Shown one piece after another: positions 25,701 through 42,859 of a stretch of DNA of 64,000 nucleotides (within the stretch, counting starts at the first letter, position 1; the number at the start of each line of letters is the position of its first letter). This stretch comes from Patescibacteria group bacterium UBA926 (lineage in GTDB: Bacteria > Patescibacteriota > Doudnabacteria > UBA920), in contig DBDS01000004.1 in the NCBI GenBank assembly GCA_002293685.1, forward strand, positions 34,479-98,478, written 5' to 3'. The notes under the pieces are model-generated. The model did no database searches. It saw only the letters and a program-made list of their open reading frames with translations, and was not told the origin of the DNA. Made by a program: the position numbers and the translations under genes.

Positions 25701-26654
25701 ATGACAATAGATACTCTTAAAAGTTTATTAAAACACTATGGTCTAAATCCTAACAAGACATACGGTCAGCATTTTTTAATGGACGAAACAATTCTTGAAG
25801 ACATGGCTGATGTTGCTGATGTTAAAGCGGGGGATATGGTTGTAGAAATCGGACCAGGGATTGGTAACTTGACTGAAATTTTGTTAAAGCGAGAAGCAAC
25901 TGTTTTATCAATTGAAAAAGATGAACAGTTTATAAGAGTTCTTCGCACGCTTTCAAAGCAATACAAAAATTTTGAGTATGAGTTAATTGATGCATTGAAA
26001 TTTAATTTCTCCTCTTTCCTGTCATCCCCGGGCGAGCGTAGTGAGAACCGGGGATCCACTAGTGGGTCCCGGCTAGCCCGCGCGACTTCGTCCGCCAAAA
26101 TCTCTACGAGATTTAGGCGGACTTCGTCGCTTGTAGCTGCCGGGAAGACACCACAGTATAAAGTTGTCGCCAACATTCCTTACTACATCACTGGGAAAAT
26201 TGTTCAATTGTTTTTGAAGCAGGAGCATAAACCAAAAAGCATGACATTGCTTATGCAGAAAGAAGTTGCTAACAATATTGTTGCGAAAGTTGGACAACTA
26301 AACTTGTTAGCAATTTCTGTACAACTATATGGCGACGCAAAATTAGTTACAAAAGTTCCTGCTTTTAAATTTCATCCGGCTCCAAAAGTTGAGAGCGCAG
26401 TTATTCATATCGAATTATTTTCCAAACCAAAATATAAATTGAAAGACGAGCAAAAGTTTTTTCGAGTGTTGCGCGCTTGCTTTGCAGGGAAGCGAAAGCA
26501 AATCCATAACACACTGACAAATAATTTAGGACTAGAAAAAACTGTTGCATTGCAAAGTTTGGAAAATATAAATGTTGACCCAACGGCAAGACCACAGCAA
26601 CTAACAATCGAACAATGGATTAAGTTAGTAGACTCAATTGAATTGCCAAATTAA
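25701..26654 (+). CDS. rsmA: 16S rRNA (adenine1518/1519-N6)-dimethyltransferase RsmA/KsgA with ~44-codon in-frame GC-rich insert
   Basis: Contains GQHFLMDE, VVEIGPGIGNLT and YKVVANIPYYITG motifs. It is 317 aa versus ~270 for typical KsgA. The insert lies between FNF and YKVVANIPY. Confidence 0.9.
   Translation: MTIDTLKSLLKHYGLNPNKTYGQHFLMDETILEDMADVADVKAGDMVVEIGPGIGNLTEILLKREATVLSIEKDEQFIRVLRTLSKQYKNFEYELIDALKFNFSSFLSSPGERSENRGSTSGSRLARATSSAKISTRFRRTSSLVAAGKTPQYKVVANIPYYITGKIVQLFLKQEHKPKSMTLLMQKEVANNIVAKVGQLNLLAISVQLYGDAKLVTKVPAFKFHPAPKVESAVIHIELFSKPKYKLKDEQKFFRVLRACFAGKRKQIHNTLTNNLGLEKTVALQSLENINVDPTARPQQLTIEQWIKLVDSIELPN
26019..26150. repeat. GC-rich palindromic element E6 inserted in frame in rsmA
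   Basis: TGTCATCCCCGGGCGAGCGTAGTGAGAACCGGGGATCCACTAGTGGGTCCCGGCTAGCCCGCGCGACTTCGTCCGCCAAAATCTCTACGAGATTTAGGCGGACTTCGTCGCTTGTAGCTGCCGGGAAGACA. It is homologous to 53002-53039, 57601-57679 and 14583-14657. Confidence 0.9.
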
Positions 26655-27286: not shown

Positions 27287-27373
27287 CATAGCTATTGCCA
27301 AAATGGTTAATTTCTGATATAATAATAACAAAGTTACTGAATTTCCGAAACAAAAATCAAAATAAAACTTAAT

Positions 27374-27739
27374 ATGTCTAATCAATTTGTACAAAAAATC
27401 GCTTCGGTGGTTTTAATTCTTGGGATATTTGTGAGCCTTTTTATGGCAGCGCAAACCGCGCGTGCACAAACCCAATCGCTGCCAATCACTCAACCATTTG
27501 GTGGAGCAATTTTATTTTCTGTTCCTCCATCACCTACTTGTGGAACAGCGCATACAATTATCTTTGATTTTAGATCAATGTCAGTTAGAGCAGTGGCACC
27601 TGTACCTTCTAGTAGAATTTATGAAAATCGGAATTTAACCACTCCTGGGACTTTTGTTTTGGGAAATTATACGAACACCCCGATACCTTGCTTGCTTCCA
27701 TATCCAATTTTTCCAATTTCTCAAGTAGGTACATCATAA
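27374..27739 (+). CDS. hypothetical secreted protein (signal peptide), first gene of the T4SS-like region
   Basis: 121-aa ORF with an N-terminal hydrophobic segment and AQTARA cleavage-like site. Confidence 0.4.
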   Translation: MSNQFVQKIASVVLILGIFVSLFMAAQTARAQTQSLPITQPFGGAILFSVPPSPTCGTAHTIIFDFRSMSVRAVAPVPSSRIYENRNLTTPGTFVLGNYTNTPIPCLLPYPIFPISQVGTS

Positions 27740-27740
27740 A

Positions 27741-28442
27741 ATGAAATTCGTTAAAACAAAAATACAACAGTACGGATTTACTGTTAACCACATCGCGTTA
27801 TTGGCTGTGGCTGTTTTGATTTTTGGAGCATTAGTCATTCCAAAGACAGGGCTTTCAATCACATCTGTATTCGGGAATGATGAACAACAACCGATGCTTA
27901 CTTACGATCAGATTCGTGGCGAGGTCTATGCTCAGATGGGCGTTGGTTCAGAAGATGCTTATATCCAAGAACTAGAAAACCAATTTGCATTATTAGATCG
28001 TGGTAGTACTGATGGTGCGGTGCTTGGAGAGATTATTGGTGTTGGTGAATTACCTGATCCCAACTCGTTGCATTTACCTGAGGTTGATGCCAAGTATCCA
28101 GCTCGTGTAATCAACGACAACTCTCCAACTTCCATCAGTGATTACCAAGATGCTGTAGCAGCTATCGAAACTCGAAATGGAGGAGCTCGTTTGTTCGCAC
28201 AACTTAGCACAGCAGATACAAACTTGCTAAATCAAAGCGTAGCTGGATTCAGCACAATCCTAAGTGAGATTTCACAATTGAACGTCCCAAGTAGCCAGCT
28301 TGAGATGCACAAGGTTCACTTATCTTATTATTACTCAATCATGAAGATGGCAGAAATTTACGCAGGTAGTGGAGATGAATCACAGCTACAGTTTTTCCTA
28401 ACTGTGATGATGAGCACTGGTAATAAGTTAAATTCATTTTAA
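27741..28442 (+). CDS. hypothetical membrane-anchored protein
   Basis: 233-aa ORF with an N-terminal TM helix, translationally coupled to the upstream gene. Confidence 0.4.
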   Translation: MKFVKTKIQQYGFTVNHIALLAVAVLIFGALVIPKTGLSITSVFGNDEQQPMLTYDQIRGEVYAQMGVGSEDAYIQELENQFALLDRGSTDGAVLGEIIGVGELPDPNSLHLPEVDAKYPARVINDNSPTSISDYQDAVAAIETRNGGARLFAQLSTADTNLLNQSVAGFSTILSEISQLNVPSSQLEMHKVHLSYYYSIMKMAEIYAGSGDESQLQFFLTVMMSTGNKLNSF

Positions 28443-28445
28443 AGT

Positions 28446-30422
28446 ATGAAATCTTTTTTTCTAAAAATTTCATCAGGAATTACTTTAACGGCGTTAATCG
28501 CTGCTTCTTTAATTTCTCCACAAACAGCTATTGCACAATTCTCTGGCACGGGACCAACCGTTCCTGTGAATGATTCACAGGTACTTGATTCTCTGGGATA
28601 CAACACTTCTTTATCGATCACAGGGGTGGTTTCGGAAGTGCAAACTGCGATCGCAGAAATCGCATCCTTGTGTAATGACATACTAGATACAGTTGAAGAC
28701 ACAGAAAATATTGCAAATTCCGTGAGTCGTTTTGAACAAGTGCTCAATGTAGCTATGAGCGTTATCGGCGGTAGTCCGGTAGAAGCAACAAAAGCATCTG
28801 TTCAGGCAGAACTCACACAAAGAAAGATCGATTGTGGTTATGCCTACCTCGAGGCATTAAATGAAATTGAACCAACCAGTTTAAATGATGCCAACCAATT
28901 GCAAAAAGCTGTGACTGAGGTTGCTACAGAATTAAATGCTCTTGAAACAAATTTAAAAAATCTGCAAGCACAGGCTAATGCAGGATGGAAAGATGTTGCA
29001 AAAGCGGTGATGGTAAGAACTTTACTTACAGTAAATAAGAACATCACCACAAAATTAGCCAATGAGTTAATCAATCGATATAAAATTGATGATTACTTGG
29101 CTTATGGCGATGCCGTGGCAACGCAAATTTATGCGATGAAGTATATCGATCAGAATTATCAGGGTGATGCTCGTACGCAAATGATGATGCGCTCGTTAAT
29201 TCAAAGCCCAAAAGCTCCAGAAAAAGCTCGGATAGCAGCGAACTTTGCAAATCAGCAAGCTAGAGAGTATATCGCTAATAGTTGTGGTAGTGCTGGGTCT
29301 TTAGATTCATCAAACAGAACTTCGCTAAATTGTTTAGCTGCTTATGGCGATGTTCAAGCTAGTCCAATGTTCAAGTATATGAACGCTTTGGACACAGCTA
29401 GTCAGATTAAGCTGCAAGCAGATAAAACAGCTCAAGCTGAGATAGCACAAAGCGCTGGTTATGCTCCGCCTCGTGACTGTAGTGGTTCTTTGTCTCAGCA
29501 ACAACAATTAGATTCGAGAATTCAAGCTGTATCGGCAGAGCGCGATGCTGCCGAAGCAGTACTAGTGAGATTACAACAAGCCTTGAAGCAAGGTCAGACA
29601 ACTCAAGCTGAAGTCGATAAAGCAGAAGCAGCTTTCTTTGCGGCAGACACAAAGTTAGTAGAATTACCGCAAGAGGTAAACTCCCCGGTAATTGATATTT
29701 GTAAAGCTATTGATTCACCGGCGTCATATTTGGGAAATCAGGTGAATGAATGGGTAAGTAATTTAACCAAACAATCTACAGACTTAAAGCAGGACAACTT
29801 ACCTTTCTACGCGAACTTTATCAGTGACATAGCAAGTAACTTCTTAACAAATTTATTGACTGGTGGTAAAAGTACTTCCCAAGTGTTTAAAGAAGCAGGG
29901 CTTCAAGCGATGGGTGCGGGGGTTGTCAGCTTGGGAAGTTTAACAAATAATAATAGCTCAGGCGGTGGACCTCTTACTTCACAAAGTTTAAGTGAGGGCG
30001 ATGTTCAAATTTATGCTCGTAGTGCAAACAGCACAGAGCGCATTAACGTGTTAATGAGCGGACAGTCTTATGTGTTAGTGATAGACTTCGCTGGGTTGAT
30101 AGCACGACCTGGTACAAATGAAGATCCTGTGTTCAATCCAGTGCGAGCAGTGGTTTCGGGTGGTAACTTTGAGGGAAGTAATAACTTCCAATTATCTCCA
30201 GCCGAATTAGCAGCTGGTCGCATTGAGTTAGATCTCACGAATGTAACGCAGTCATTTTCTATCAATGCTCAATTCTATGCTCGCGTGCAAGGTTCTGACA
30301 CCCCGTTGCGTGGTGGTGGGTGGACTCAATCGTTTGTAGTTGGAACGGTAGGTGGTGCAAAGACAGTGTTCTTCAATCCTCGAGGGGAAATGCCGAACAC
30401 AAGCACGTTCCGCATCCGATAA
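28446..30422 (+). CDS. hypothetical large secreted protein
   Basis: 658-aa ORF with a signal peptide and Ala/Gln-rich coiled-coil-like segments. Confidence 0.45.
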   Translation: MKSFFLKISSGITLTALIAASLISPQTAIAQFSGTGPTVPVNDSQVLDSLGYNTSLSITGVVSEVQTAIAEIASLCNDILDTVEDTENIANSVSRFEQVLNVAMSVIGGSPVEATKASVQAELTQRKIDCGYAYLEALNEIEPTSLNDANQLQKAVTEVATELNALETNLKNLQAQANAGWKDVAKAVMVRTLLTVNKNITTKLANELINRYKIDDYLAYGDAVATQIYAMKYIDQNYQGDARTQMMMRSLIQSPKAPEKARIAANFANQQAREYIANSCGSAGSLDSSNRTSLNCLAAYGDVQASPMFKYMNALDTASQIKLQADKTAQAEIAQSAGYAPPRDCSGSLSQQQQLDSRIQAVSAERDAAEAVLVRLQQALKQGQTTQAEVDKAEAAFFAADTKLVELPQEVNSPVIDICKAIDSPASYLGNQVNEWVSNLTKQSTDLKQDNLPFYANFISDIASNFLTNLLTGGKSTSQVFKEAGLQAMGAGVVSLGSLTNNNSSGGGPLTSQSLSEGDVQIYARSANSTERINVLMSGQSYVLVIDFAGLIARPGTNEDPVFNPVRAVVSGGNFEGSNNFQLSPAELAAGRIELDLTNVTQSFSINAQFYARVQGSDTPLRGGGWTQSFVVGTVGGAKTVFFNPRGEMPNTSTFRIR

Positions 30423-30546
30423 AAATTTAAAAATACCGTCGTTCGAAGCAATTCGGGCGGCGGTTTTTTGTTCACAGATTTAGCTTGGAGTTTGAGATGT
30501 GTATGTGGTATAATATTTACAAGATTTAGCGGTTAAAACACATTCT

Positions 30547-33500
30547 GTGACCACGAAACAAACATCAAATTTCCTCAATTTTTTGCTTAAATTTTTGAAA
30601 CAAAACCTACATAAAAGAAGCAAGCGGATTGTTCTCGCTTTCGACAAGTTGAGGCGGATTGTTCTAGCATCCCTCGTTGCTTTTTTGTTTGTTCCGGTCG
30701 TTGGTTATGCTCAAGGACCCTTACCACCATCACAAACACCTCCAATCAATCCAACTCCAACCAATAGTTCTACTTGTGATTTGACCAGATTATCTGATGC
30801 GAATGCCAAGGCTGATTATGTGTTTGCGCCATCTGAAAACACTCCAATCAATCCAGAACAGGTTTTTCAAATTGGTGTGAAAATTAGCAATATTACAGAC
30901 CAACAACTAGCAGCAGCTTGTTACCAGAGCCAAAATTTAAAAATTTCAGCTAAATTTTATTTGTATCAATGTCTTCCTCTTCTTGATTATATAGCCTGCA
31001 GTCAAGCTACTGGTCCTGCTCTATCTGAAGGGATTTTAGAAGGAACTGGAAAGGTGATCAAAGACTCGAGCGGTACAGCTATTGGAATCGGTGGTGTTTT
31101 TGCTCCCATGAAGCTTACGGACATAATGAAAACCAGAATTACTGGCGCTCCTTTTGATTTTTCTATCACCAATACCATTCTGAATAATTATTATGTATAT
31201 GTATATCCAGAAGTTTTAATTTCGGATATGAATAAGGTTGAAGTTCCGTTCAATGATACTTATGCATTTTGGAGACAAGTGACTGTGAGTGCACCAGTTG
31301 GTTCACCGGGCGCAGTTCCCCCGGAGTTTGCACCTGAGACTGAGAATACAGCAAATCCTGGAGCAGCTGGCACACTTTTCAACTTCATCCGAAGTGTAAT
31401 CGCTTACATTGTTTTATTATTGACCAGCTTTATTTATTACATATTTTCAATTATTTTAGTTCCGGTTTTGGTCGCACTGTTGCAGATTCAGGCGTACAAA
31501 GATAACTTTGTAAACTTTATTTACCCAGGTTGGGTTATCATCAGAAACATCTCGAATATCTTGTTCATAATCGCGCTGTTATGGATTGGGCTTCGTACTC
31601 TTTTCCAAGTTGATGACGCAAGCAAGAGTCGTAGCTTTATAGTTCGATTAATTTTAATGGCGTTGCTCGTTAACTTCAGTTTGGTAATTGGTCAAGCCAT
31701 TGTTGGTATAGCTGATACTGTTCAAGCCCAGTTTTTACCGAAAGATAGTAGGGTTGTTGAAGCTTTGGGTCATAAGTTGATGGTTGACCCGATTATCACT
31801 TTCCGTGGTGGTGCAGATCTTGATGCAAGCGGCAACTTCACCAGCAACTCGTTCGCAAGTGATTTACCAAAAGCAATTATCTTACTTGTTCTTGCGGTTG
31901 CAGCATTTTTTGCTTTCGTTGCACTAATAGCATTTATTTTTGTGCGACTAGGAATGTTATGGCTTTTATATATGTTGTCGCCGCTGGCGTATGTGGCGCA
32001 AATATTACCTGAAACTAAAGAGTATGGTAAAAAATGGTTTACCGAGTTTCTTCGCTATGCATTTGTTGTACCTATTTTAGCGTTTTTCTTAAATATGACC
32101 GCTCTAATAGCAGTTACTTTTTCTAGAACAAGTGGTGATCAGGTTCAAGTTGAAGGCTCTGGTACGACTGCGCTGGGAGGGTTAGTTCCTACGGGCGATG
32201 CGGCAGCGGGAATAGTAGAGTTTGCAGTCACTGTAATGTCTCACTTCATCGTTCTAGTTTTCTTGTTTGGCGGAATGGCCTTCGCTCAAAAATTTGGTGG
32301 TGTTGGTTCAAAACAAATTGTTTCATTCGCGAAGAAGGGCTTTGATGCTGTTACTAAGAGACCAGCAATGTGGGCAGCGCGAGGCGCTGGGAATTTGGCT
32401 AAAAGTTATGGAAAAGAACAGTATGAACGAAAAATTGCTGGTGGATTGTTAGATCCAAAAGCATGGAAAGAGGGTTGGAAAGGTAGAATTAGTACAGAGA
32501 CTAACACTCAGAAATCTAATCGTTTACTTAAGAAAGATGGTAAACTGAATCCCGGTATTGCGACCCAGTATATGGGAACTTCCTTAAAATATTTGTTTCA
32601 TAAAATGACCTTCGGTGCACCTCATCGATTACTCTCAGAAGCTGATAGACTAAAAGAGCAGGCAAGTATTTTTACTGAGAACGAGAGATTAGCCAAGGAA
32701 GTCAAGTTGGGAGAAAATCAATCTGTTAAGCAAATTTATGATGCATTTAAAACTGGAATACCGGAAACAGGGCCAATCAATGTTGCTGGATTATTGGGTA
32801 GTTTAGGAACCCAAATAACTGATTTTGAAAATCAAGGCAATTTAAAAGCAGATAATCTAGAGATAGAAGCCAATACCTTGGAGGCGAATGGAAATATGTC
32901 TGGAGCTGCAGCAAAAAGAGCAGAAGCAGCTTCAGTTTTACAAGAATATGAGGATAAAGTAAAAGAGTTAAATAAAGTTAAAGATAAACTTGATCCTGCG
33001 ACTAATGGTGGGGTAGATGTAAACTCTGATCCAGGTTTGCGTAAACAAATTTCCAATGACTTGGAAAAAAGTATTGAGGAGCTTGCAAAAAATATTGAGG
33101 ATTCTCAGAAACAAATTAAGGACAATAATGTTCTTAAGCAAAAGTACGGCGTAACGGGTGATTTACCTGAGTCAGAAAGAGAGAGATTAAGGAAACAGGC
33201 CGAGTCGTTAGAACAAAAAGCCAGTGAACGAAAACTTCCAGAATCTCTGGCAATAAGGGCTTTATTGAGAGAAGGGCAAAAGAAGGAAATGGAAAAATAT
33301 GATGGTGTTGATGACCCAGATGAACTAATTGCTATTCATAAAAAGGCTATGAAAGATAATAATCTTTTGTTAGCAACGGCAATTCAAAAAAAGTTAGCTA
33401 AGGAAGGCTTCTTTAAAGATCTTCTACAAAGTGAAGGTGGGCGAAATAATATTGAATCGATGCAGGCATTCTTTGCGAAGAATTTAAAGGGAATGGCTCC

Positions 33501-33930
33501 TAATGTTCGCATGCAGGTTATGTCAGAGGTAAGTTATCTTAATAAACAAAGCAATAACTTGGCGTTATCCAATGCCACCAAAATGGATGCTGAAACAGGT
33601 AGTCTGAGATTAGCCACCTTAGAAGAACAAGCCAAAAAGGTAAATGGATTCTTAGAGTCAAGAAATCCTAATGATTTATCAAATCTTAAAGCTGATCAGG
33701 TAGTTAGGGAAAGAGAAGATGGTAAGAATGAAATTTTTGGTGGTTATGTAAATGCAATGAAAAAGCATATGGAAAGTTTGTCTGCCATAGAATTCGATAA
33801 ATATGTTCCTAAAATTCCTACCAATGTAGCAAAAAAGGTGGCTAATGCTACTAACTTTGGAGATTTTAATCCACAAGGCACTGCGATAGGAAATAAGATT
33901 CAACAAGCTTTTAAGGATCGTGGGAAATAA
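30547..33930 (+). CDS. giant polytopic membrane protein, VirB6/TrbL-like candidate with long charged C-terminal tail
   Basis: 1127-aa ORF with about 7 TM helices in residues 280-560 and a K/E-rich coiled-coil C-terminus. It lies next to the VirB3/VirB4-like genes. Confidence 0.4.
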   Translation: MTTKQTSNFLNFLLKFLKQNLHKRSKRIVLAFDKLRRIVLASLVAFLFVPVVGYAQGPLPPSQTPPINPTPTNSSTCDLTRLSDANAKADYVFAPSENTPINPEQVFQIGVKISNITDQQLAAACYQSQNLKISAKFYLYQCLPLLDYIACSQATGPALSEGILEGTGKVIKDSSGTAIGIGGVFAPMKLTDIMKTRITGAPFDFSITNTILNNYYVYVYPEVLISDMNKVEVPFNDTYAFWRQVTVSAPVGSPGAVPPEFAPETENTANPGAAGTLFNFIRSVIAYIVLLLTSFIYYIFSIILVPVLVALLQIQAYKDNFVNFIYPGWVIIRNISNILFIIALLWIGLRTLFQVDDASKSRSFIVRLILMALLVNFSLVIGQAIVGIADTVQAQFLPKDSRVVEALGHKLMVDPIITFRGGADLDASGNFTSNSFASDLPKAIILLVLAVAAFFAFVALIAFIFVRLGMLWLLYMLSPLAYVAQILPETKEYGKKWFTEFLRYAFVVPILAFFLNMTALIAVTFSRTSGDQVQVEGSGTTALGGLVPTGDAAAGIVEFAVTVMSHFIVLVFLFGGMAFAQKFGGVGSKQIVSFAKKGFDAVTKRPAMWAARGAGNLAKSYGKEQYERKIAGGLLDPKAWKEGWKGRISTETNTQKSNRLLKKDGKLNPGIATQYMGTSLKYLFHKMTFGAPHRLLSEADRLKEQASIFTENERLAKEVKLGENQSVKQIYDAFKTGIPETGPINVAGLLGSLGTQITDFENQGNLKADNLEIEANTLEANGNMSGAAAKRAEAASVLQEYEDKVKELNKVKDKLDPATNGGVDVNSDPGLRKQISNDLEKSIEELAKNIEDSQKQIKDNNVLKQKYGVTGDLPESERERLRKQAESLEQKASERKLPESLAIRALLREGQKKEMEKYDGVDDPDELIAIHKKAMKDNNLLLATAIQKKLAKEGFFKDLLQSEGGRNNIESMQAFFAKNLKGMAPNVRMQVMSEVSYLNKQSNNLALSNATKMDAETGSLRLATLEEQAKKVNGFLESRNPNDLSNLKADQVVREREDGKNEIFGGYVNAMKKHMESLSAIEFDKYVPKIPTNVAKKVANATNFGDFNPQGTAIGNKIQQAFKDRGK

Positions 33931-34972
33931 AAACCTTATGCAATCAATAGATATGAGCACAATCAAAGATATTATCGCAACAAATGATGTCAGGGAGGCT
34001 GTCAGATTGTTGGTATTTTTAAAAAAATCTCCAAAGATTGAAATTGATCAAAATTTATTGATGCAACTTCAGTATGTACGAATGAATAGCTTAACCCCAT
34101 CTCGCCTATTAGATTTATTAAGAGCATCTGTATTAGCTTGTTATTCAATCCCAAATTCATTGCTTAGTGAGAAATTGAAGGAATACTTAATTCAACTTGA
34201 TAGTGTTCCAGAAGAAATTGATTTTTTTGAAAAATTTATAAAGTTATTGGAAACTGACGAAGAGTTGATTGCTAATTCAAAACTGGTTGTAAAAGGTCAG
34301 CCATTTATACCGTCAATTAAGAATTTTATTGCGGACTTTAATTCTTCTACAAATGATTTTTCAAATAAAGATGCTTTGGTGGAAATTCGATACTTCTCTA
34401 ATTCTCCTTATATCAATTCTTTGCCTGAGGAAAGAAAGTTCATAGCAAGGGATATTATAAAAAGTTATAATTATGCTAAATCATCATTGCAAGAGTGGAA
34501 TAGTATTCCTGAAATAAAATCTCCCGAAGAGAAAGCCAATATATTAAAGAACTTTGATTTATACAAGGCAATTCCGTGGTTAGAAGAATATTTAGAGGAA
34601 GAGATAGAAAATGAATCACAGACAGTCGCTCCGAAAACAATTTTTCAAACATCTCAGCCTACACAATCAACTCAAGTTACTCAACCTGTACAATCACAGC
34701 GGGTTATCCGAAATAACACACCACCTGTGGGGACAGACACTCAACAAGCAAAAATCGACCGTAATTTACAAGTGGGTTCAGATGAGAATGAATTTAAAAT
34801 CCCGCAACAACGAGATTTAGACTTGTCCCGTCAAGCAAAACGAGGATTAGTGTTTGATGAGCCAACTAATGTCGATTTAACGGAAGTCGCGAAACGTCGA
34901 GAAGAGGAACTAAAAAAACAAAGAGCTATCGATGAAAAATTAAACGCTCTTAAACAGCGTAAGCAGAAATAA
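33920..34972 (+). CDS. hypothetical protein
   Basis: 350-aa ORF overlapping the upstream stop. No motif recognised. Confidence 0.4.
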   Translation: MGNKNLMQSIDMSTIKDIIATNDVREAVRLLVFLKKSPKIEIDQNLLMQLQYVRMNSLTPSRLLDLLRASVLACYSIPNSLLSEKLKEYLIQLDSVPEEIDFFEKFIKLLETDEELIANSKLVVKGQPFIPSIKNFIADFNSSTNDFSNKDALVEIRYFSNSPYINSLPEERKFIARDIIKSYNYAKSSLQEWNSIPEIKSPEEKANILKNFDLYKAIPWLEEYLEEEIENESQTVAPKTIFQTSQPTQSTQVTQPVQSQRVIRNNTPPVGTDTQQAKIDRNLQVGSDENEFKIPQQRDLDLSRQAKRGLVFDEPTNVDLTEVAKRREEELKKQRAIDEKLNALKQRKQK

Positions 34973-34973
34973 T

Positions 34974-35780
34974 ATGTCAGATCCAGTAAAAATTCAAAAG
35001 CTTACAAACTTGGTGGAAACCTCTACTATACTAAATGCTCAGGAAAAATCCGAGTGGCTTGCTTTGATGCAACTGATGAACGATAAGCAACTCTCAGAGC
35101 TTGAAGAAATTTTGAAGCCTGCCGCACCGAGCGTTACACCTGTTAGTAACAATAATCAAACTCAAGGTGTGAGCACACCTCCTTTGTCGCACATTAGCAA
35201 TCTACCTAGTCAGATGGTCGACCCGAGAATTAAGGCACGGCCTTTGGAGATGTTTCATTCCTCACAACCGGCTAAGCCAGCTGTGAAAACTCCAGTTCAA
35301 TCACCTCGCGTTCCTGAGCCACGACCACAGCCTAGAGTTCAAGCACCATCTCCTGTTATCTCTAAAGCTCAACCAATTACTCAACCAGTGCCTGTTGTTA
35401 GCTCACCTCAGAAACCACTTCAGACAGTTGCACCAAAGCCTGCATTTAACCCGGAGCCTGTAACCCCACCTACTCATGGACAAGTCAAAGTGGCACCGAC
35501 AATTCAATTAAGCTCGCTGGATGAAGCAAGTACATTAACATCCGCCGCGCTTCACGAGCAAACCAGGGAAGGTTTTTATAAGGCCATTATTGGTCTGGCA
35601 GAACAATTCGGTTATTTTCAAGTTTTATCCCAATTAGAACTAAGTCCTCTATATAAAGATTATTTGGTTTATGGAAAAGTAAGATTAAATGGTGGTCCGG
35701 ATGATAATTTACCTCTTTCACAAGAGGAGTTTGAGTTTGTTGCAGATTTGTTGACGGCGTTAAAAATTAACCGCGTTTAG
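34974..35780 (+). CDS. hypothetical proline-rich protein
   Basis: 268-aa ORF with a P/Q/V-rich central region. Confidence 0.4.
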   Translation: MSDPVKIQKLTNLVETSTILNAQEKSEWLALMQLMNDKQLSELEEILKPAAPSVTPVSNNNQTQGVSTPPLSHISNLPSQMVDPRIKARPLEMFHSSQPAKPAVKTPVQSPRVPEPRPQPRVQAPSPVISKAQPITQPVPVVSSPQKPLQTVAPKPAFNPEPVTPPTHGQVKVAPTIQLSSLDEASTLTSAALHEQTREGFYKAIIGLAEQFGYFQVLSQLELSPLYKDYLVYGKVRLNGGPDDNLPLSQEEFEFVADLLTALKINRV

Positions 35781-35794
35781 TTTGGTATAATTTG

Positions 35795-35888
35795 AGTTAG
35801 GAAGTAAGCAGTAGAAAGTAGTGAGTAAGACTCTACTGATCCGAACCTGGCTAAAATTACTTCTTACTTCTTACTATTTATTTCTTAG
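35795..35888. repeat. AT-rich GTAAG/CTTAC imperfect hairpin upstream of the VirB3-like gene
   Basis: GGAAGTAAGCAGTAGAAAGTAGTGAGTAAG...TTACTTCTTACTTCTTACTATTT. An extended -10 TGGTATAAT at 35782-35790 precedes it. Confidence 0.55.
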
Positions 35889-35893
35889 TTTCA

Positions 35894-36349
35894 ATGCAAT
35901 TTCCTGTCCCACAATTTACCGACGTCGAAGATAAAATTATCGCAGGTCTAACCTTTAAACAATTCGCGATAGTTTTTGGGGCAGCTGTTTTCACTTTCAT
36001 AATTTATACAATCAGCAAAAACTTACCAATTACTATCGGAGTAGCAGTTTTTACAGGCATACCAGCACTCGCATTAGTGTTTGGAAAGTTGAATGGCCGC
36101 CCTTTATACTCTAGTGCTGGAAATTTTGTTCAATATCTTTTTGGCCCCAAAGTTTATATTTACCATAAAGAGGGAAAAGATTTTGGCTCAGAGTATACTC
36201 CAATTATAGTTGAGGAAAAAGTTGCACCTAAAGACTTGAAACAAACTGCTGTGAAAATCAAAGAACTAAATTATGTTTTGCAACAACAACAATCTGAGCA
36301 ATCAAAGTTAATAGATATGATTAAGCAAAACCGCGAACAATCTAAATAA
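35894..36349 (+). CDS. small two-TM membrane protein, PrgI/VirB3-like candidate
   Basis: 151-aa ORF with two adjacent TM helices, immediately upstream of the VirB4 N-domain gene. Confidence 0.4.
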   Translation: MQFPVPQFTDVEDKIIAGLTFKQFAIVFGAAVFTFIIYTISKNLPITIGVAVFTGIPALALVFGKLNGRPLYSSAGNFVQYLFGPKVYIYHKEGKDFGSEYTPIIVEEKVAPKDLKQTAVKIKELNYVLQQQQSEQSKLIDMIKQNREQSK

Positions 36350-36357
36350 ATAGTTCC

Positions 36358-37041
36358 ATGGAAACCAAAAGCAAAAAAACAGTCGGCTCACCAACTCAGC
36401 AATTTCTAAAGCTCTCAGAGATTAGAGATGATTTAATCGTGATGAACGATGGAACATTGCGCGCGGTACTCGCTGTTTCTTCAACGAACTTTGACTTGAA
36501 GAGCGAAGAAGAACAGAACGCTCTAATCTATAGTTATCAAAGATTTTTGAATTCTTTAGAGTTTCATATTCAAATTGTTGTTCAATCTAGAAAAATGGAT
36601 ATTGCCGAGTACATGAGCAAGCTAAAAGTTTTAGCCGAAAAGCAAACCAATGAGTTACTTCGAATGCAAACCCAGGAGTACATCGAGTTCATTGATCGTT
36701 TGGTTGAATCGGCCAACGTAATGAACAAAGATTTCTACGTAATCGTTCCTTATACTACCAGCATTACCCCAGCGTCCACTGGAATATTTGGAAAGTTATT
36801 TGGTACAGGCCAATCTAAGCAAGTAGCCGATAGGGAAGCTAATCTAGCAAACGGTCGCAAGCAACTTGATGAGCGAGCAAATACTGTAGCCGCATCCTTA
36901 TCTAGTAGCGGTTTGCGCGTGGTTAGACTGGGAACTGATCAATTAATCGAACTTGTTTATAATTCTTATAATTTTGCAGCTGGCCCAAGCATAGATGCTA
37001 GTCAATTAGAAAAAGTTACTATTAAAGACTTACGAAATTAA
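36358..37041 (+). CDS. VirB4/TrbE/CagE N-terminal domain protein (first part of a split VirB4)
   Basis: The pattern LSEIRDDLIVMNDGTLRAVLAVSSTNFDLKSEEEQ resembles the VirB4 N-terminal domain. The stop at 37041 is followed 2 nt later by the ATG of the ATPase ORF. Confidence 0.5.
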   Translation: METKSKKTVGSPTQQFLKLSEIRDDLIVMNDGTLRAVLAVSSTNFDLKSEEEQNALIYSYQRFLNSLEFHIQIVVQSRKMDIAEYMSKLKVLAEKQTNELLRMQTQEYIEFIDRLVESANVMNKDFYVIVPYTTSITPASTGIFGKLFGTGQSKQVADREANLANGRKQLDERANTVAASLSSSGLRVVRLGTDQLIELVYNSYNFAAGPSIDASQLEKVTIKDLRN

Positions 37042-37043
37042 TT

Positions 37044-38891
37044 ATGTCTTTATTTTCAATCAATAAATCAGAATTAGATAAGAAAAAGTCCGAACTCGAG
37101 CATCTTAAAGGTCAAATTTCTGCTGACAGTAAGCTAGTTGAAGTTGAAAAGCAGTACCGTGAAGGTGTTACAACTCTGCGTGATTTACTCGCACCTGCTT
37201 CACTAAAATTTACTAATTCTTATTTCGAACTTAACGGCAAATTTGGTCGTAGCTTTTTTGTACTCGCATATCCACGATTCCTATCCTCAAACTGGCTTTC
37301 ATTTATTATCAATTCCGAGAGTGCTTTAGACGTTTCGATGTACATTTATCCAATTGATTCTGGGATGGTACTAAAAAAGCTTAAGAGTAAGATTGGAGAA
37401 ATTGGTTCACAGATTACGATTGAGCAAGAAAAAGGCCTTGCTCGAAATCCACTTTTAGAAACTGCTTATCACGACGTAGAAGAACTTCGAGATGAACTTC
37501 AGCAAGGCACAGAGCACTTCTTCCGTTTTGCATTGTACTTCACTTTGTATTCAGATTCTTTGGATGAGTTAGATAAAAACTCGAAAATTTTAGAAAGCGC
37601 ATTGGGTGCAAAGTTAGTTGTGACTAAACGCGCATTGTTAGCTGTTGAAGCAGGATTTAATTCTACTTTACCTTTAGGTGTAGACGAATTAGATGTGGCG
37701 AGTAATTTAAACACCAGTCCGTTGTCGAGCACTTTTCCATTCGTGTCTTCAGATTTAACTGGAAACGACGGAATCCTTTATGGAATCAATCGTCATAACA
37801 ACAGTTTGATTTTGTTTGATAGATTCCAAATGGAGAATGCTAATTTTGTGATTTTTGCAAAATCTGGAGCAGGAAAATCTTATGCTGTTAAATTAGAAAT
37901 CCTTCGTTCGTTGATGGTCGGCATTGATGTAATAGTCATTGATCCAGAAAATGAGTATCAGCATTTGGCAGAAGCTGTTGGGGGTACTTATATTAATATT
38001 TCTCTTAACTCAGATTTCCGAATTAATCCTTTTGATTTACCGATTGGCATGGAAGATGAAGACAAAGCAGATATTTTACGCAGCGCCGTTATTAATTTAG
38101 TGGGTTTGATGGGATTGGTTTTAGGTAAACTCGATCCAACCGAAGAAGCGATACTAGACAAAGCTCTCTGGGCAACATATGCCAAAAAAGATATCACTGA
38201 AAATTCTGATTACGCCACCGTTGAAATGCCAATTATGAGTGATCTAATCGAAGTTTTAGCAGGAATGGTTGGGGGTGAGAGCTTGGCGCAACGCTTAGGT
38301 AAATTTACCGAAGGAACTTTTGCAGGATTGCTTAACAATCAAACCAACGTAGTTTTAAAAAATCAATTGTTAGTATTTTCGATTCGAGATTTAGAAGATT
38401 CGCTTCGCCCAATCGCGATGTATATTATCCTTGGTCATATATGGAATGTGGTTCGTAGTGAACTTAAAAAACGAATTATGGTTTTGGACGAAGCTTGGAT
38501 CATGATGCAACATGAAGACTCAGCTCGTTTCGTATTTGGTATCGCTAAGCGTGCGCGTAAGTATTACTTGGGTCTTACCACAATCACTCAGGACGTCGCT
38601 GATTTTATGGCCAGTCCATATGGAAAACCAATTGTGACTAATTCTTCAATTCAATTGCTTCTTAAACAAAGCCCTGCCGCAATTGAAATTGTGCAAGAAA
38701 CTTTTTTCCTTACTGAAGGAGAAAAATATTTGTTGCTCGAAAGTGATGTGGGAGAAGGAATTTTCTTCGCTGGATTAAAGCACGCTGCAATAAAAATTTA
38801 TGCATCGTATGTTGAAGACCAAATTATTACAACCGACCCGAAACAATTATTAGAAATCGAACAAAGTAAGGAAGAATTATCTGAGCAGTAA
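37044..38891 (+). CDS. virB4: VirB4-family type IV secretion ATPase (C-terminal/ATPase part)
   Basis: Walker A FAKSGAGKSY, Walker B VLDEAW, and VirB4-specific regions. Confidence 0.8.
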   Translation: MSLFSINKSELDKKKSELEHLKGQISADSKLVEVEKQYREGVTTLRDLLAPASLKFTNSYFELNGKFGRSFFVLAYPRFLSSNWLSFIINSESALDVSMYIYPIDSGMVLKKLKSKIGEIGSQITIEQEKGLARNPLLETAYHDVEELRDELQQGTEHFFRFALYFTLYSDSLDELDKNSKILESALGAKLVVTKRALLAVEAGFNSTLPLGVDELDVASNLNTSPLSSTFPFVSSDLTGNDGILYGINRHNNSLILFDRFQMENANFVIFAKSGAGKSYAVKLEILRSLMVGIDVIVIDPENEYQHLAEAVGGTYINISLNSDFRINPFDLPIGMEDEDKADILRSAVINLVGLMGLVLGKLDPTEEAILDKALWATYAKKDITENSDYATVEMPIMSDLIEVLAGMVGGESLAQRLGKFTEGTFAGLLNNQTNVVLKNQLLVFSIRDLEDSLRPIAMYIILGHIWNVVRSELKKRIMVLDEAWIMMQHEDSARFVFGIAKRARKYYLGLTTITQDVADFMASPYGKPIVTNSSIQLLLKQSPAAIEIVQETFFLTEGEKYLLLESDVGEGIFFAGLKHAAIKIYASYVEDQIITTDPKQLLEIEQSKEELSEQ

Positions 38892-38898
38892 AACCTTA

Positions 38899-39055
38899 GT
38901 CATTCTGAACAAAGCAACTTCATCATTCTGAGCTCTTCGAAGAATCTACCTCTGTCATTCTGAAGCCGTAGGCTGAAGAATCCAATAATTAGAGATCCTT
39001 CGCTTCGCCCGCCAAAATCCCTTTGAGATTTAGGCGGATTACGCTCAGGATGGCA
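38899..39055. repeat. GC-rich element E8: three tandem GTCATTCTGA(A/G) sub-units plus a CGCCAAAATCCCTTTGAGATTTAGGCGGA module
   Basis: Read directly from the sequence. The CGCCAAAATC...GAGATTTAGGCGGA module also occurs inside the rsmA insert at 26085-26125. Confidence 0.85.
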
Positions 39056-40015
39056 TCTCCTAACATGTTACTTCTAGACTCCACAAACTTTAATGCATCC
39101 GATTCAAACGAATCTCTCTCAGACGAGAGAGATTCTTTTGTTGGTAATGATCAAGAACAAGACGGGGATCGTGAAGAGTTAAAAGCAAAAGCTAAGCAAA
39201 ATGCACTGTCCCGGTTGAGCGCACCTAAACCATTAAATTTGAATCAGCGTGTGCCAGGTTCGCAAGGTTCAAGTAGTTCGATGGGTGGCGTTGGTAAACC
39301 AGGAATTGCTAAACAAAAACTTGGCCGTGACCCACAGAAACTTTCTGGATATGGTGGAGCTGGAGGCCCTTCTGCAATGAAATCTTCAGGAGTAGGTAAT
39401 ACCAAGTCTTCGATGGGAAAAGCAAAGACTTCATCTGTGAAAAAGGGTGGTAAGGGTGATGCAGTCAATGCTGTTAAAGATGTGGCAAATCAGGTGCCTG
39501 TTATTGGTCAAAAAGTTTCTGCAAAAATTGCAAGCTTGCAAGAAGACGAGGGACGCTTGATAGGATTTTTGCTCTGGGTTATTTGGGGATTGCTATCAAT
39601 TGCTGGATTGATTGTTTCCATTAGTATAGTTGGGATAGTTATTGCGGCCCCAGTCATTTTAATCTTTAATTTATTATTGATTTCACCTCGGCTAGTTTAT
39701 AGACTCACGGTCTGGATATTAGATTTATTTGGGATTGGTGAATTCCTGCAAGGAGCTGAAAAGTCAGGAATTATTGATAAACATACAATTAGAATCGGTG
39801 GTTTCGAAAAAACCACTATAATTTTATTTGATATCTTGCTCTTCATCGGAATTGTCCTGATGTTGGTGATGTTTGTTTACTTCTCATGTTGGTTAGGTGA
39901 GCAGACAGGAGTATTGGGTACAGGTTTTGCAAAGGTGGTATTAACCGGTTATGACTGGTGGAATGGAACTGAATACGCATCTATAGTAGATCAAGTCTGC
40001 GGGCTTGTAAATTAA
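39023..40015 (+). CDS. hypothetical membrane protein (G/S/K-rich N-terminus, 4-5 TM helices at C-terminus); start uncertain
   Basis: The called TTG start lies inside element E8. Alternative ATG starts are at 39048 and 39066. Confidence 0.4.
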   Translation: MRFRRITLRMASPNMLLLDSTNFNASDSNESLSDERDSFVGNDQEQDGDREELKAKAKQNALSRLSAPKPLNLNQRVPGSQGSSSSMGGVGKPGIAKQKLGRDPQKLSGYGGAGGPSAMKSSGVGNTKSSMGKAKTSSVKKGGKGDAVNAVKDVANQVPVIGQKVSAKIASLQEDEGRLIGFLLWVIWGLLSIAGLIVSISIVGIVIAAPVILIFNLLLISPRLVYRLTVWILDLFGIGEFLQGAEKSGIIDKHTIRIGGFEKTTIILFDILLFIGIVLMLVMFVYFSCWLGEQTGVLGTGFAKVVLTGYDWWNGTEYASIVDQVCGLVN

Positions 40016-40074: not shown

Positions 40075-41238
40075 ATGAATAAAAAAGCAATTGCGATATT
40101 AGGTGGGATATTTATCCTTATTGTCGGTACTTTAGGGGTAATTATTTATTTACGCTCAACAGGTGATGATGAGCCAACTACTCCAGTGGAAACTCCACCT
40201 GTGGTTATTCAAGAACCTGTGATAGATTTTCCGGATTTTGAAGAACCGGAGCCAACTCCAGTTACAGGTTCTGGGGCTACTCGATTAACAGATGAAGCAG
40301 TGATTACGCCTGCCTTGTTTTTCCAAGGAAATGGCATCGCTTATTTTAACAGACAGGGTCAGTTATTCAGAACTGATATGGCCATTTCAGGTTCCACTGT
40401 CTTACTAAGTAATAAAACTGAGATCACCATTCCTCCTAAAAGTGGTATTTCAAAAATATTATGGCCTCTAGTTGGACAAAGTTTTATAGCTGAATCTGGA
40501 GTCGGTTTGGCACGTCAGTGGAGTTACTATAACCCAGAAACTGGGGTGTACGTTGAATTGCCAAGACAGGTGAAAAGTCTAAGCTGGATGCCTGATGGTA
40601 CAAAAATTGTGTTCGTGTGGGTAGACGATAATGGAAATGCTACTTTAAATCTGGCTAACCCAGACACGACTGGGTACCAATTACTGTCTGAGCTATATGA
40701 TAGTGATATTGAAATTATGGTTTCCCCTGATGGGCGGACCATTGCTTATTACAGAAATCAAAACACCAATTTAAGTGAGAATGGTTTGTTTACAGTATCA
40801 GCAGATGGCCAGACATGGGGGACAATCACTCGTGAAGGTTATAACCGCGGAGTATTATGGAGTCCAGATAGCCGTAAGTTGTTATTCAGTAAGCGGGATA
40901 GTTCAGGTTCATCAACTCTTTGGATGGCCGATCTTACAACTTCGCAAGTGAAAAGTCTGGGCGTGAGCTCAAGTGAAACCAAAGCTGTGTGGAGTCGCGA
41001 CAGTCAAAGCGTTGTTGTTGCGGTGCCAAGTTCGGGTGGTGTCGGCAGTGGTTTAACATCTGATTCAATTGCTAAAATAGATGTGATGTCTGGTTCTAAA
41101 ACCGATTTCAGCTTAGGAAGCGGTGTGGATGCGCAAGAATTATTCTTGAACCTTGAAGAAAATATATTATTCTTCCGTAACGCTCAAGACGGATCTCTTT
41201 ACTATTTGTTCCTATCCTCACCTAGTTCTTCGTTTTAA
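40075..41238 (+). CDS. membrane-anchored beta-propeller protein (TolB/PD40-like repeats)
   Basis: N-terminal TM helix plus repeated WxPDG / SPDGR motifs. Confidence 0.5.
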   Translation: MNKKAIAILGGIFILIVGTLGVIIYLRSTGDDEPTTPVETPPVVIQEPVIDFPDFEEPEPTPVTGSGATRLTDEAVITPALFFQGNGIAYFNRQGQLFRTDMAISGSTVLLSNKTEITIPPKSGISKILWPLVGQSFIAESGVGLARQWSYYNPETGVYVELPRQVKSLSWMPDGTKIVFVWVDDNGNATLNLANPDTTGYQLLSELYDSDIEIMVSPDGRTIAYYRNQNTNLSENGLFTVSADGQTWGTITREGYNRGVLWSPDSRKLLFSKRDSSGSSTLWMADLTTSQVKSLGVSSSETKAVWSRDSQSVVVAVPSSGGVGSGLTSDSIAKIDVMSGSKTDFSLGSGVDAQELFLNLEENILFFRNAQDGSLYYLFLSSPSSSF

Positions 41239-41283
41239 AAATACTATACACAAAATTTTATATTATCCTTGGCTTAACTAAGT

Positions 41284-41376
41284 ATCCCCGGCGAAGGCCG
41301 GGGCCTACATCACAGATCCCGGATCGCCTTTGGCGTCCGGGAATACTTTTTTTGTCATCTCAGCGTCTGGGAATAC
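41284..41376. repeat. GC-rich palindromic element E9 (ATCCCCGGCGAAGGCCGGGG ... ATCCCGGATCGCCTTTGGCGTCCGGGAAT ... TGTCATCTCAGCGTCTGGGAAT)
   Basis: Homologous to the segment at 62717-62790 inside miaA. Confidence 0.85.
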
Positions 41377-41491: not shown

Positions 41492-42787
41492 ATGGCCATA
41501 AAAACAGTTTATACATGTGAAAATTGTGCTTTTCAAAGCCCTCGCTGGCAAGGAAAATGTCCATCCTGCGGGGAATGGAATTCATTTCAGGAGCAAACTA
41601 TTCAAACTACCAAAAAGAGCGTTGGTTCTATTTCTTTCGGATCAGCGGTTAAGCCTGTTCAATTATCAGAGGTAAGGCAGAACAAGGTACCGCGAATTCT
41701 TACTGGAATAGGTGAGTTGGACTTGGTATTAGGCGGAGGTATAGTACCGGGTTCTGTAATTCTTCTTGGTGGCGATCCAGGGATTGGTAAATCGACTTTA
41801 GCACTACAGTTAGCCAATCTTCTGGAAAAGGCCAATCAGAGCGTTTTATACGTGTCTGGTGAGGAATCTGCCCAGCAAATCGCGATGCGAAACCAACGCC
41901 TGACCTTAAAAGAGGATATTTTAGTTTTAGCAGAAACAGATTTGGAATTAGCTATCGCAACAATCGAGCAATTTAAACCTACAGCTGTAATTATCGACTC
42001 CATCCAGACGATGAGTTCGTCAGAAGCAGGTGGTGTTACCGGTGGTGTAGCTCAGTTATCTTATGTTACGAATCAACTTATTCGTTTAGCTAAACGACTT
42101 CATGTAGCAATTATTTTAATTGGTCACGTTACTAAAGAAGGAATGTTGGCTGGTCCAAAAACTATTGAACATATGGTGGATTGTGTTTTATATTTAGAAG
42201 GTGAGCGTCTTGGTAATTTGCGAATTTTACGTAGTTCCAAGAATCGTTTCGGAAGCATCGGCGAAGTTGGAGTTTTCGAAATGCACGACACAGGTTTAGT
42301 AGAGGTTGCGAACGCTTCCAGTATGTTTTTGGAAAATACCGAAACCCCGATGTCGGGGAGTTGTGTGACAGCGTTAATGGAAGGTAATAAAACTTTACTT
42401 ATAGAAATTCAAGCCTTAACAAACACTTCCAGCGCAAGTTACCCAAGGCGCGTTGCTTCTGGGTTTGATGCAAACCGACTTCAGTTACTATTAGCTATTA
42501 TGCAAAAGACTTTAGGAATCAATCTTGGTAATCAAGATGTGTACGTAAACGTAGCAGGTGGTTTTAAAGTTAGCGAACGGGCCGCTGATTTACCAGTCGT
42601 GATGGCGATTTTATCTTCTTACTATGGAAAGGCTTGGCCAAAAGGAACTATTGCGTATGGTGAAGTTGGTTTGCTAGGCGAAGTTAGGCTAGTTTCTCAG
42701 GCACAGAAACGGGACAAAGAGGCCAAGAAATTAGGTTTCAATAATTTAGTCAAAGTGAAATCGATTAAGAATTTGAATTTAAAATAA
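41492..42787 (+). CDS. radA: DNA repair protein RadA/Sms
   Basis: Zn-finger CENCAFQSPRWQGKCPSCGEW, Walker A GGDPGIGKST, and KNRFG motif. Confidence 0.9.
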   Translation: MAIKTVYTCENCAFQSPRWQGKCPSCGEWNSFQEQTIQTTKKSVGSISFGSAVKPVQLSEVRQNKVPRILTGIGELDLVLGGGIVPGSVILLGGDPGIGKSTLALQLANLLEKANQSVLYVSGEESAQQIAMRNQRLTLKEDILVLAETDLELAIATIEQFKPTAVIIDSIQTMSSSEAGGVTGGVAQLSYVTNQLIRLAKRLHVAIILIGHVTKEGMLAGPKTIEHMVDCVLYLEGERLGNLRILRSSKNRFGSIGEVGVFEMHDTGLVEVANASSMFLENTETPMSGSCVTALMEGNKTLLIEIQALTNTSSASYPRRVASGFDANRLQLLLAIMQKTLGINLGNQDVYVNVAGGFKVSERAADLPVVMAILSSYYGKAWPKGTIAYGEVGLLGEVRLVSQAQKRDKEAKKLGFNNLVKVKSIKNLNLK

Positions 42788-42827
42788 AAAACCATGGTTA
42801 GTATGTTGGTTTTTAGCGAAATGAAAA

Positions 42828-42859
42828 CCTGCAAGTGGGAGACTTGCAGGGTGTTTTTT
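42828..42859 (+). terminator. intrinsic terminator CCTGCAAGT-GGGAG-ACTTGCAGG plus GTGTTTTTT
   Basis: Perfect 9-bp stem plus T-run after radA. Confidence 0.8.

Follow-up and report, generated by a model that had tools for sequence, protein, structure and literature searches.

The type IV secretion gene cluster

The DNA described here (the window) is a stretch of 64,000 nucleotides from the forward strand of contig DBDS01000004.1 of Patescibacteria group bacterium UBA926, a member of the Doudnabacteria, with positions counted from its first nucleotide. Between 27374 and 41238 it carries, all on the forward strand, eleven consecutive open reading frames (ORFs) of 121, 233, 658, 1127, 350, 268, 151, 227, 615, 330 or 316 (depending on the start codon) and 387 amino acids (aa), among them the genes of a type IV secretion system (T4SS); ORFs without a T4SS family name are called here by their lengths. 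A preliminary description, drawn from the letters and a list of ORFs, had outlined a co-directional block of 11 ORFs at 27374-40015. The shared direction stands and the count does not, there being ten co-directional ORFs of at least 100 aa in that interval and an eleventh at 40075-41238. Successive ORFs are separated by -11 to 8 nt, with four larger gaps: 124 nt after ORF658, 113 nt after ORF268, 173 nt after the VirB4 gene (to the ATG at 39065) and 59 nt after ORF316. Gene callers start the tenth ORF at this ATG (316 aa), not at the TTG at 39023 (330 aa). The GC content is 0.37-0.41 within the cluster and outside it alike, with no anomaly relative to the flanks.

The 615-aa protein (37044-38891, forward strand) is the body of the VirB4 ATPase. 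It matches NCBIfam NF045971, the CD1110 family of Clostridioides difficile CTn2, with E=9.4e-105 and 351.5 bits against a cut-off of 325, and Pfam P-loop_TraG with E=1.1e-25; AAA_10 and DUF87 are matched as well. The Walker A motif (AKSGAGKS, residues 272-279) lies at nt 37857-37880 and the Walker B motif (IMVLDE, residues 478-483) at nt 38475-38492. The nearest solved structure is the C-terminal domain of Thermoanaerobacter VirB4 (4AG5, E=2.8e-43), followed by TrwK of R388. Just upstream, the 227-aa ORF (36358-37041, forward strand) encodes a TrsD-like protein, that is, the N-terminal domain of VirB4 as a gene of its own. It is recognized by the NCBIfam profiles VirB4_plasma (E=2.9e-11) and TrsD (E=2.5e-7), both below the curated whole-protein cut-offs, and has PF26593, TraC-like, on record. 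The two proteins divide the CD1110 profile between them, the 227-aa ORF covering positions 2-120 and the 615-aa ORF positions 158-728; a TAA stop plus two bases lie between them, and their frames differ. Because TrsD is a separate ORF of about 225-235 aa in 74 related loci, the split is, as judged from these sequences, genuine and ancient and not a frameshift.

Upstream of the TrsD-like gene lies that of a PrgI/VirB3-like protein of 151 aa (35894-36349, forward strand), which matches Pfam PrgI with E=5e-9 (37 bits against a cut-off of 27), has two transmembrane (TM) segments, at residues 15-33 and 46-64, and is likewise kept in 74 loci. The 1127-aa protein (30547-33930, forward strand) is an extended VirB6/TrbL, matching Pfam TrbL/VirB6 with E=2.9e-6 and 27.7 bits against a cut-off of 25.9; TrbL is also matched by 13 of 30 of its relatives, at best with E=6.7e-10. 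A scan for TM segments gives an N-terminal hydrophobic segment plus at least six others. The protein begins with a signal or anchor, continues with an ectodomain of about 240 aa and a polytopic core (residues ~290-575), and ends in a Lys/Glu-rich hydrophilic tail of about 550 aa, which is presumably cytoplasmic.

VirB4 is not the sole T4SS homolog here: profile searches place VirB6/TrbL, PrgI/VirB3 and the TrsD-like N-domain beside it, making four clear T4SS homologs in all. The preliminary description had spoken of a T4SS-related machine with a VirB4-family ATPase bearing Walker A and B motifs, a split VirB4, a two-TM protein in the VirB3/PrgI position and a 1127-aa polytopic membrane protein resembling VirB6/TrbL, and each of these identifications holds.

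Conservation and genomic setting

Related loci were retrieved with VirB4. Its closest relatives, 57-96% identical, are almost all titled as candidate phyla radiation (CPR) or Patescibacteria metagenome-assembled genomes, a few just as "bacterium". The order VirB6-(ORF350)-(ORF268)-PrgI-TrsD-VirB4 is kept in 80 loci, whose record titles name Doudna-, Uhr-, Portnoy-, Moran-, Sungi- and Azambacteria; VirB6, PrgI, TrsD and VirB4 recur in order in 74-80 loci. The pair uvrD-ksgA often lies upstream of the cluster, and in the Doudnabacteria-like set a TolB-like gene, radA and recG lie downstream. From this recurrent gene order, often after uvrD-ksgA, the cluster is judged to be inherited vertically and not to be a mobile element. 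In the window itself the flanking housekeeping genes encode RecO, a LysM-CHAP hydrolase, UvrD/PcrA, KsgA and DUF192 upstream, and RadA, RecG, a sigma factor, a ComF-like protein, ClpB and RecX downstream. Genes of recombination, repair and competence are unusually dense around the T4SS (19099-21663, 23477-25606, 41492-45178, 48811-49497 and 52632-53144).

A VirB4 100% identical to that of the window is also found on an 851-kb contig of GCA_022842405.1, in GCA_002293775.1 and in several metagenome contigs. Compared with the four closest species, identity is 95-96% for VirB4, 81-85% for TrsD and 77-83% for PrgI, as against 75-81% for RadA, 75% for UvrD and 63% for KsgA among the housekeeping neighbors. 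The remaining members of the cluster are far less alike: VirB6 39-43%, ORF658 44-47%, ORF268 about 45%, ORF330 39-45%, ORF233 36-40% and ORF350 27-32%. Because VirB4 identity exceeds that of RadA, UvrD and KsgA, the ATPase module is very strongly constrained by purifying selection, and this speaks for an important function and against a relic.

No called gene anywhere in the window has on record a Pfam family of a type IV coupling protein (T4CP, VirD4), a relaxase or an integrase, and repeat boundaries flanking the cluster were not found. The absence of VirD4 and relaxase genes asserted in the preliminary description thus extends to the whole 64 kb, and the probably non-conjugative role it proposed is consistent both with this annotation and with published work on Patescibacteria (PMC10633639; PMC12102498). 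We consider it probable that the locus encodes a chromosomally fixed, vertically inherited Patescibacteria T4SS, belonging to a VirB4 clade derived from class FATA of the mating pair formation systems (MPF-FATA) and serving contact-dependent transfer of macromolecules between epibiont and host rather than conjugation.

A conjugative or mobilizing T4SS of an integrated element, with its coupling protein and an unrecognized relaxase elsewhere in the genome, would account for the fact that the best family matches are conjugative (CD1110 of CTn2, the Mbov_0397 family of an integrative conjugative element (ICE), and TraC), and Patescibacteria often have T4CP homologs far away from virB4 (PMC12102498). 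It is nevertheless very improbable, given that the cluster holds the same chromosomal position (uvrD-ksgA ... radA-recG) across CPR lineages, has the GC content of its flanks, is accompanied in the window by no detected integrase, relaxase or repeat boundaries, and has a VirB4 more conserved than its housekeeping neighbors; relaxases, moreover, occur in only 103 of 3,035 genomes of the phylum (PMC12102498).

The crowd of recombination genes bears on another alternative, that of a nucleic-acid import machine, a T4SS working inward to take up host DNA or RNA which the nearby recombination and competence genes would then process. The ComB system of Helicobacter and the archaeal Ced and Ted systems are the models for such import; like them, the present locus has a VirB4-family ATPase without a relaxase in the window (nor is a T4CP on record there), and here recombination genes are close by. 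RecO (19099-19821), UvrD (23477-25606), RadA (41492-42787) and RecG (43124-45178) crowd the surroundings of the cluster, with the ComF-like gene (48811-49497) and recX (52632-53144) also near, and radA and recG are syntenic with it in all Doudnabacteria-like loci. An association of the T4SS with comF, recG and radA is described for the class ABY1 (PMC12102498), and a 2026 preprint (10.64898/2026.06.21.733656) describes uptake of host RNA by a cultivated Patescibacterium, with tubular structures that are perhaps T4SS pili. We nonetheless regard import as unlikely. Unlike in the ComB and Ced systems, no CedA or ComB-specific component was found, and the matches to CedB (46 bits, cut-off 700) and CedD (22 bits, cut-off 600) fall far below threshold; shared P-loop ancestry accounts for both, the CedB match being no more than the general likeness of VirB4 and HerA. 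The synteny with uvrD-ksgA and radA may be a mere conserved chromosomal position. In addition, according to the part of a review that summarizes the original study (PMC12857230, on PMC10633639), deletion of comEC in Southlakia ended competence and left the cells viable, and the T4SS stayed essential.

Strain-variable segments

Comparison of the window by blastn with the locus of a conspecific strain (GCA_022842405.1) shows cluster DNA that is 95-99.6% identical wherever it can be aligned, interrupted by three segments without alignment; outside these three, identity of the locus between the two strains is 98-100%. The first segment (29925-30372) corresponds to the C-terminal immunoglobulin (Ig)-like domain of ORF658, which is about 100% identical over residues 1-490 and only 10-38% identical over the Ig-like domain. 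The second (30642-31375) covers the VirB6 ectodomain and measures 733 bp here and 1450 bp in the other strain; the third (32468-34734) takes in the hydrophilic tail of VirB6 and most of ORF350. Between the strains the core of VirB6 is 92-100% identical, its ectodomain, twice as long in the other strain, 16-30%, and its tail 7-44%; in ORF350, residues 1-250 are 18-40% identical and the end is 100% identical. Within the third segment several metagenome contigs come to an end, as coexisting alleles would lead one to expect.

No donor alleles closer than 47% were found for these modules among 86 loci. A diversity-generating retroelement was considered as the cause and set aside: the window has neither a reverse transcriptase nor a pair of template and variable repeats, and the segments are replaced wholesale instead of differing by point mutations. 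The VirB6 ectodomain occurs in a short type of about 230 aa and a long type of about 490 aa, both of which recur across different species; this recurrence points to recombination or to a trans-species polymorphism.

Specificity is probably determined by the strain-variable modules. A more far-reaching interpretation, offered with little confidence, is that of a polymorphic secretion system in which specificity modules are swapped as cassettes within a species, the outer ones setting the host surface and the inner one recruiting the substrate in place of a coupling protein. The outer modules, choosing the host surface, would be the ectodomain of VirB6 and, in ORF658, the C-terminal Ig-like domain; the inner module, consisting of the hydrophilic tail of VirB6 and ORF350, would be the platform for substrates that replaces the coupling protein.

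Accessory proteins

Apart from VirB4, TrsD, PrgI and VirB6, none of the ORFs in 27374-40015 matches a Pfam or NCBIfam family. The first three (27374-30422) had been described as secreted or anchored, and each does have a single N-terminal hydrophobic segment; for none of the three was similarity to any T4SS family found by sequence or fold. ORF121 (27374-27739, forward strand) is a small, presumably secreted protein containing Cys and Pro, with an N-terminal signal-like segment, and is detected in the closest relatives only. ORF233 (27741-28442, forward strand) appears to be an extracytoplasmic protein that is anchored at its N-terminus and bears an invariant motif, QFALLDRG..GAVLG, beside the membrane; only nine homologs are detectable, and its C-terminal half is confidently modeled as a helical bundle without a specific structural neighbor. 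ORF658 (28446-30422, forward strand) appears to be a secreted helical protein with six conserved cysteines (four invariant, two conserved in at least 90%), a helical core and, at residues ~520-633, the strain-variable Ig-like beta-sandwich; its structural matches are generic and its family narrow, with 169 representatives among 1.84 billion proteins.

Between virB6 and the PrgI gene lie two predicted soluble proteins. ORF350 (33920-34972, forward strand) gave no Pfam family, nothing meaningful in a profile search of Protein Data Bank (PDB) sequences, and no Pfam family in scans of 19 relatives. A hidden Markov model (HMM) built from these 19 relatives (alignment A4) does, though, match the ORF directly 3' of VirB6 in 62 loci, among them 10 of the 23 most distant (L064-L086, with record titles that are generic or name Uhr-, Moran- or Portnoybacteria), the lowest E being 1.3e-17. 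The conserved part is a central domain, about residues 100-185 of the window protein. Because the HMM finds it directly after VirB6 in so many loci, ORF350 is by these criteria a conserved, unannotated companion of VirB6. ORF268 (34974-35780, forward strand), noted previously as a Pro-rich protein and indeed 23% proline over residues 50-170, has a conserved module at either end, with a Pro-rich linker between the two. It sits between ORF350 and PrgI in 58 loci, with a single marginal match (E=2.6e-4) in L064-L086; a profile search of PDB sequences gave nothing meaningful, and Pfam scans of 43 relatives gave two isolated single-member matches.

The slot after VirB4 is occupied by ORF316 (39065-40015, forward strand), with a Gly/Ser/Lys-rich N-terminal region (50% Gly+Ser+Lys over residues 61-150 of the 330-aa version) and a multi-TM C-terminal module containing two invariant cysteines, in agreement with the multi-TM Gly/Ser-rich protein reported earlier at 39023-40015 apart from the start codon. 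In Doudnabacteria-like loci a multi-TM protein is always next after VirB4. In three related loci the protein in this position is much longer, 687-992 aa (L032:11859-13922, L060:11864-14098 and L037:12021-14999). Two that align to the membrane module carry a C-terminal cell-wall hydrolase domain, Peptidase_M15 in L032 (E=1.3e-26) and SLT in L060 (E=2.6e-17); the L037 protein matches SLT_3 (E=1.9e-7), and a module shared between it and ORF316 was not demonstrated. No hydrolase domain was found in ORF316/330 itself with Pfam or NCBIfam. The fusions in relatives tie the slot to cell-wall remodeling, and on the evidence of these domain matches they show a lineage-specific gain or loss of the hydrolase module. 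A profile of the ORF316 membrane module recovered only 5 close relatives, and in other CPR classes the slot 3' of VirB4 gave a single sub-threshold T4SS_pilin match.

ORF387 (40075-41238, forward strand) is an N-terminally anchored PD40/TolB-like beta-propeller (Pfam PD40, E=5.7e-14). A gene of this type lies 3' of the cluster in every Doudnabacteria-like locus that reaches that far, and on the strength of this synteny it is possible that it is an envelope component of the system. The LysM-CHAP cell-wall hydrolase (21854-22888, reverse strand; Pfam CHAP E=7.2e-15, LysM E=1.1e-10), whose gene ends about 4.5 kb upstream of the cluster start on the opposite strand, is a speculative candidate to stand in for VirB1. 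Beside it, at 19837-21663, lies the gene of a 608-aa protein that is anchored in the membrane at its N-terminus and whose extracytoplasmic part is long, repetitive and seemingly rich in beta structure; Pfam matches it only faintly, and it may be a surface adhesin.

Two sites bear on how the block is transcribed, both of them consensus matches. A promoter-like sequence at 27295-27323 (forward strand; TTGCCA-17-TATAAT with the TG of an extended -10, 11 of 12 positions, the best in the region, in which promoter-like sites are in total no more frequent than the shuffled expectation) lies upstream of ORF121, and a strong terminator-like hairpin at 30435-30464 (forward strand; 13-bp stem, T tail) lies between ORF658 and virB6. 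Together they suggest two transcription units.

The hairpin is one reason to ask how far the machine extends. It may comprise VirB6, ORF350, ORF268, PrgI, TrsD and VirB4 only, with ORF121, ORF233, ORF658, ORF316 and the TolB-like protein being unrelated envelope neighbors. The position of the hairpin 3' of ORF658 fits this, as do the lack of T4SS-family similarity in ORF121, ORF233 and ORF658, whether in sequence or fold, and the results for L064-L086, in which ORF658 is unmatched and ORF233 has two weak matches only. We think it doubtful, however, as synteny with virB6 is kept by ORF233 and ORF658 across Doudnabacteria-like loci, the VirB6 ectodomain and the neighboring variable C-terminal domain of ORF658 are replaced together between strains, and the post-VirB4 slot has the hydrolase fusions typical of monoderm VirB1 analogs.

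Proposed organization of the machine

If the cluster encodes a machine for contact-dependent transfer between epibiont and host, as preferred here, VirB4 with TrsD would dock via PrgI onto a VirB6 channel in a single membrane. The VirB6 ectodomain with ORF121, ORF233 and ORF658 would be the extracellular part that touches the host, and the VirB6 tail with ORF350 and ORF268 would form a cytoplasmic platform; passage through the cell wall would fall to the post-VirB4 membrane protein, possibly aided by the separate LysM-CHAP hydrolase. We infer both the assignments of the accessory proteins and the swapping of modules.

Several observations weigh against this interpretation. Its function is carried over from the Saccharimonadia, whose cluster differs in having a pilin array, a lysozyme and an NTF2-like protein. 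Homologs of VirB8, VirB1, VirB2 and VirB5 were not found inside the cluster, and ORF233, the only anchored candidate that was modeled, does not show the NTF2 fold of VirB8. For the VirB2 pilin, neither PF18895 nor PF04956 is matched in the 64-kb window, nor does the window contain, besides PrgI, a pilin-like small protein with at least two TM segments. The VirB6 assignment depends on a Pfam score only just over the cut-off, and a profile of the VirB6 family searched against PDB sequences reached no solved VirB6 structures. The terminator-like hairpin parts the three upstream ORFs from virB6, and the membership of the accessory ORFs in the machine follows from synteny and co-variation only.

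Other features of the window

Short GC-rich palindromic repeats occur in several copies, partly in frame within housekeeping genes: at 26013-26126 (in ksgA), 52995-53040 (in recX), 62591-62771 (in miaA), 39003-39043 (in the gap between virB4 and the next ORF), 41281-41328, 192-227 and 21768-21803. A low-complexity insert of about 40 aa in KsgA (SSPGERSENRGSTSGSRLARATSSAKISTRFRRTSSLVAAGKT) coincides exactly with two repeat copies; it is absent from five aligned relatives, of which L066 has only a short unrelated insert at this place. In miaA there are three 42-nt tandem copies. These in-frame repeats recall the Rickettsia palindromic elements.

In the 1.2-kb gap between lemA and gatC (56125-57310) no gene is annotated by Pfam, and Rfam gives no match even at E<=1. 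The gap contains three small hydrophilic ORFs in tandem (56506-56709, 56709-56921 and 56896-57135), each after a GGAGG-like site, with a terminator-like hairpin behind them near 57150. They were considered as pilins and rejected, being hydrophilic and not pilin-like.

Small ORFs with a GIY-YIG domain are found at 45680-46016 and 18131-18385. Where the former adjoins tRNA-Ser (about 45679-45906), the conspecific strain has a different, 162-aa ORF instead; the tRNA-Ser genes at 46024-46111 and 48506-48598 share duplicated flanks. A tmRNA gene (9475-9860, reverse strand) scores 112 bits with Rfam and was missed by ARAGORN; smpB is nearby, at 11878-12315.

Relation to known systems and significance

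A large part of bacterial diversity belongs to the Patescibacteria, and every member that has been cultivated lives on other microbes. T4SSs have reportedly been noted in Saccharibacteria by McLean et al. and by Wang et al. In Southlakia epibionticum epibiotic growth requires the T4SS, which is similar to the conjugative systems of Gram-positive bacteria and has no recognizable coupling protein or relaxase (PMC10633639); no T4SS other than that of Patescibacteria is known to be indispensable for its bearer's growth (PMC12857230). In the phylum survey of Quinonero-Coronel et al., VirB4 was found in 2,417 of 3,035 Patescibacteria genomes and forms a monophyletic clade nested in MPF-FATA; VirB4, TrsD, PrgI and VirB6 are widespread, relaxases are present in 103 genomes only, and ksgA, radA, recG and comF are frequent T4SS neighbors (PMC12102498). 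The name Doudnabacteria was not found in the main text of that survey.

The present locus is like that of Candidatus Southlakia epibionticum ML1 (SEML1_0006-0019) in being chromosomal, in belonging to a monoderm envelope, in lacking a relaxase or coupling protein in the cluster, and in its series of an extended VirB6-like protein, PrgI, a TrsD-like protein and a VirB4 of about 612-615 aa. With the Patescibacteria VirB4 clade at large it shares the neighbors ksgA, radA and recG, described there for several classes. Southlakia alone has, near virB4, six VirB2-like pilin genes (PF18895), a second VirB6-like protein, and NTF2-like (VirB8-like) and lysozyme-like proteins, none of which was found here; only the present locus, of the two, has ORF121, ORF233 and ORF658, ORF350 and ORF268, a membrane protein without a hydrolase domain, and the TolB-like propeller.

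To the MPF-FATA systems of Firmicutes (pGO1 with TrsC/TrsD/TrsE, CTn2 with CD1110, pCF10 with PrgH/PrgI/PrgJ/PrgK, and pIP501) the cluster is related through a VirB4 scoring over the CD1110 cut-off, the presence of PrgI, and a best solved VirB4 relative from Thermoanaerobacter. As in pGO1, a TrsD-like gene of its own encodes the VirB4 N-domain (PMC12102498), and the membrane proteins with SLT or peptidase domains seen in relatives are like the PrgK/TraG-type VirB1 analogs of Gram-positive T4SSs. Unlike those systems, the cluster resides on neither a plasmid nor an ICE, its VirB6 is greatly extended, and its window is without a T4CP (PcfC/TraJ), a relaxase, an adhesin (PrgB) or the VirB8-like PrgL/TraM. 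The rvh T4SS of Rickettsiales is comparable in being chromosomal, in belonging to a reduced, host-dependent genome, in not serving conjugation, and in having a VirB6 with large hydrophilic extensions, an "extended VirB6" (PMC12857230; PMC7648143); a 2025 review applies this name to such proteins and highlights the Patescibacteria systems (PMC12857230). The rvh system differs in being a diderm MPF-T system with VirB7-11, VirD4 and a duplicated VirB6, whereas here there is a single VirB6 and a minimal set of monoderm type.

The locus adds nothing categorically new, its type of system, typical of ultra-small CPR bacteria, being already in the literature. New here are the relatives of ORF350 after VirB6 in other CPR lineages, the fusion, in relatives, of the post-VirB4 protein to hydrolase domains, and the modules replaced between strains. 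It also provides a compact example of such a system, without pilin genes in the 64-kb window, and its three sharply bounded strain-variable modules are natural candidates for determinants of host range or substrate specificity.

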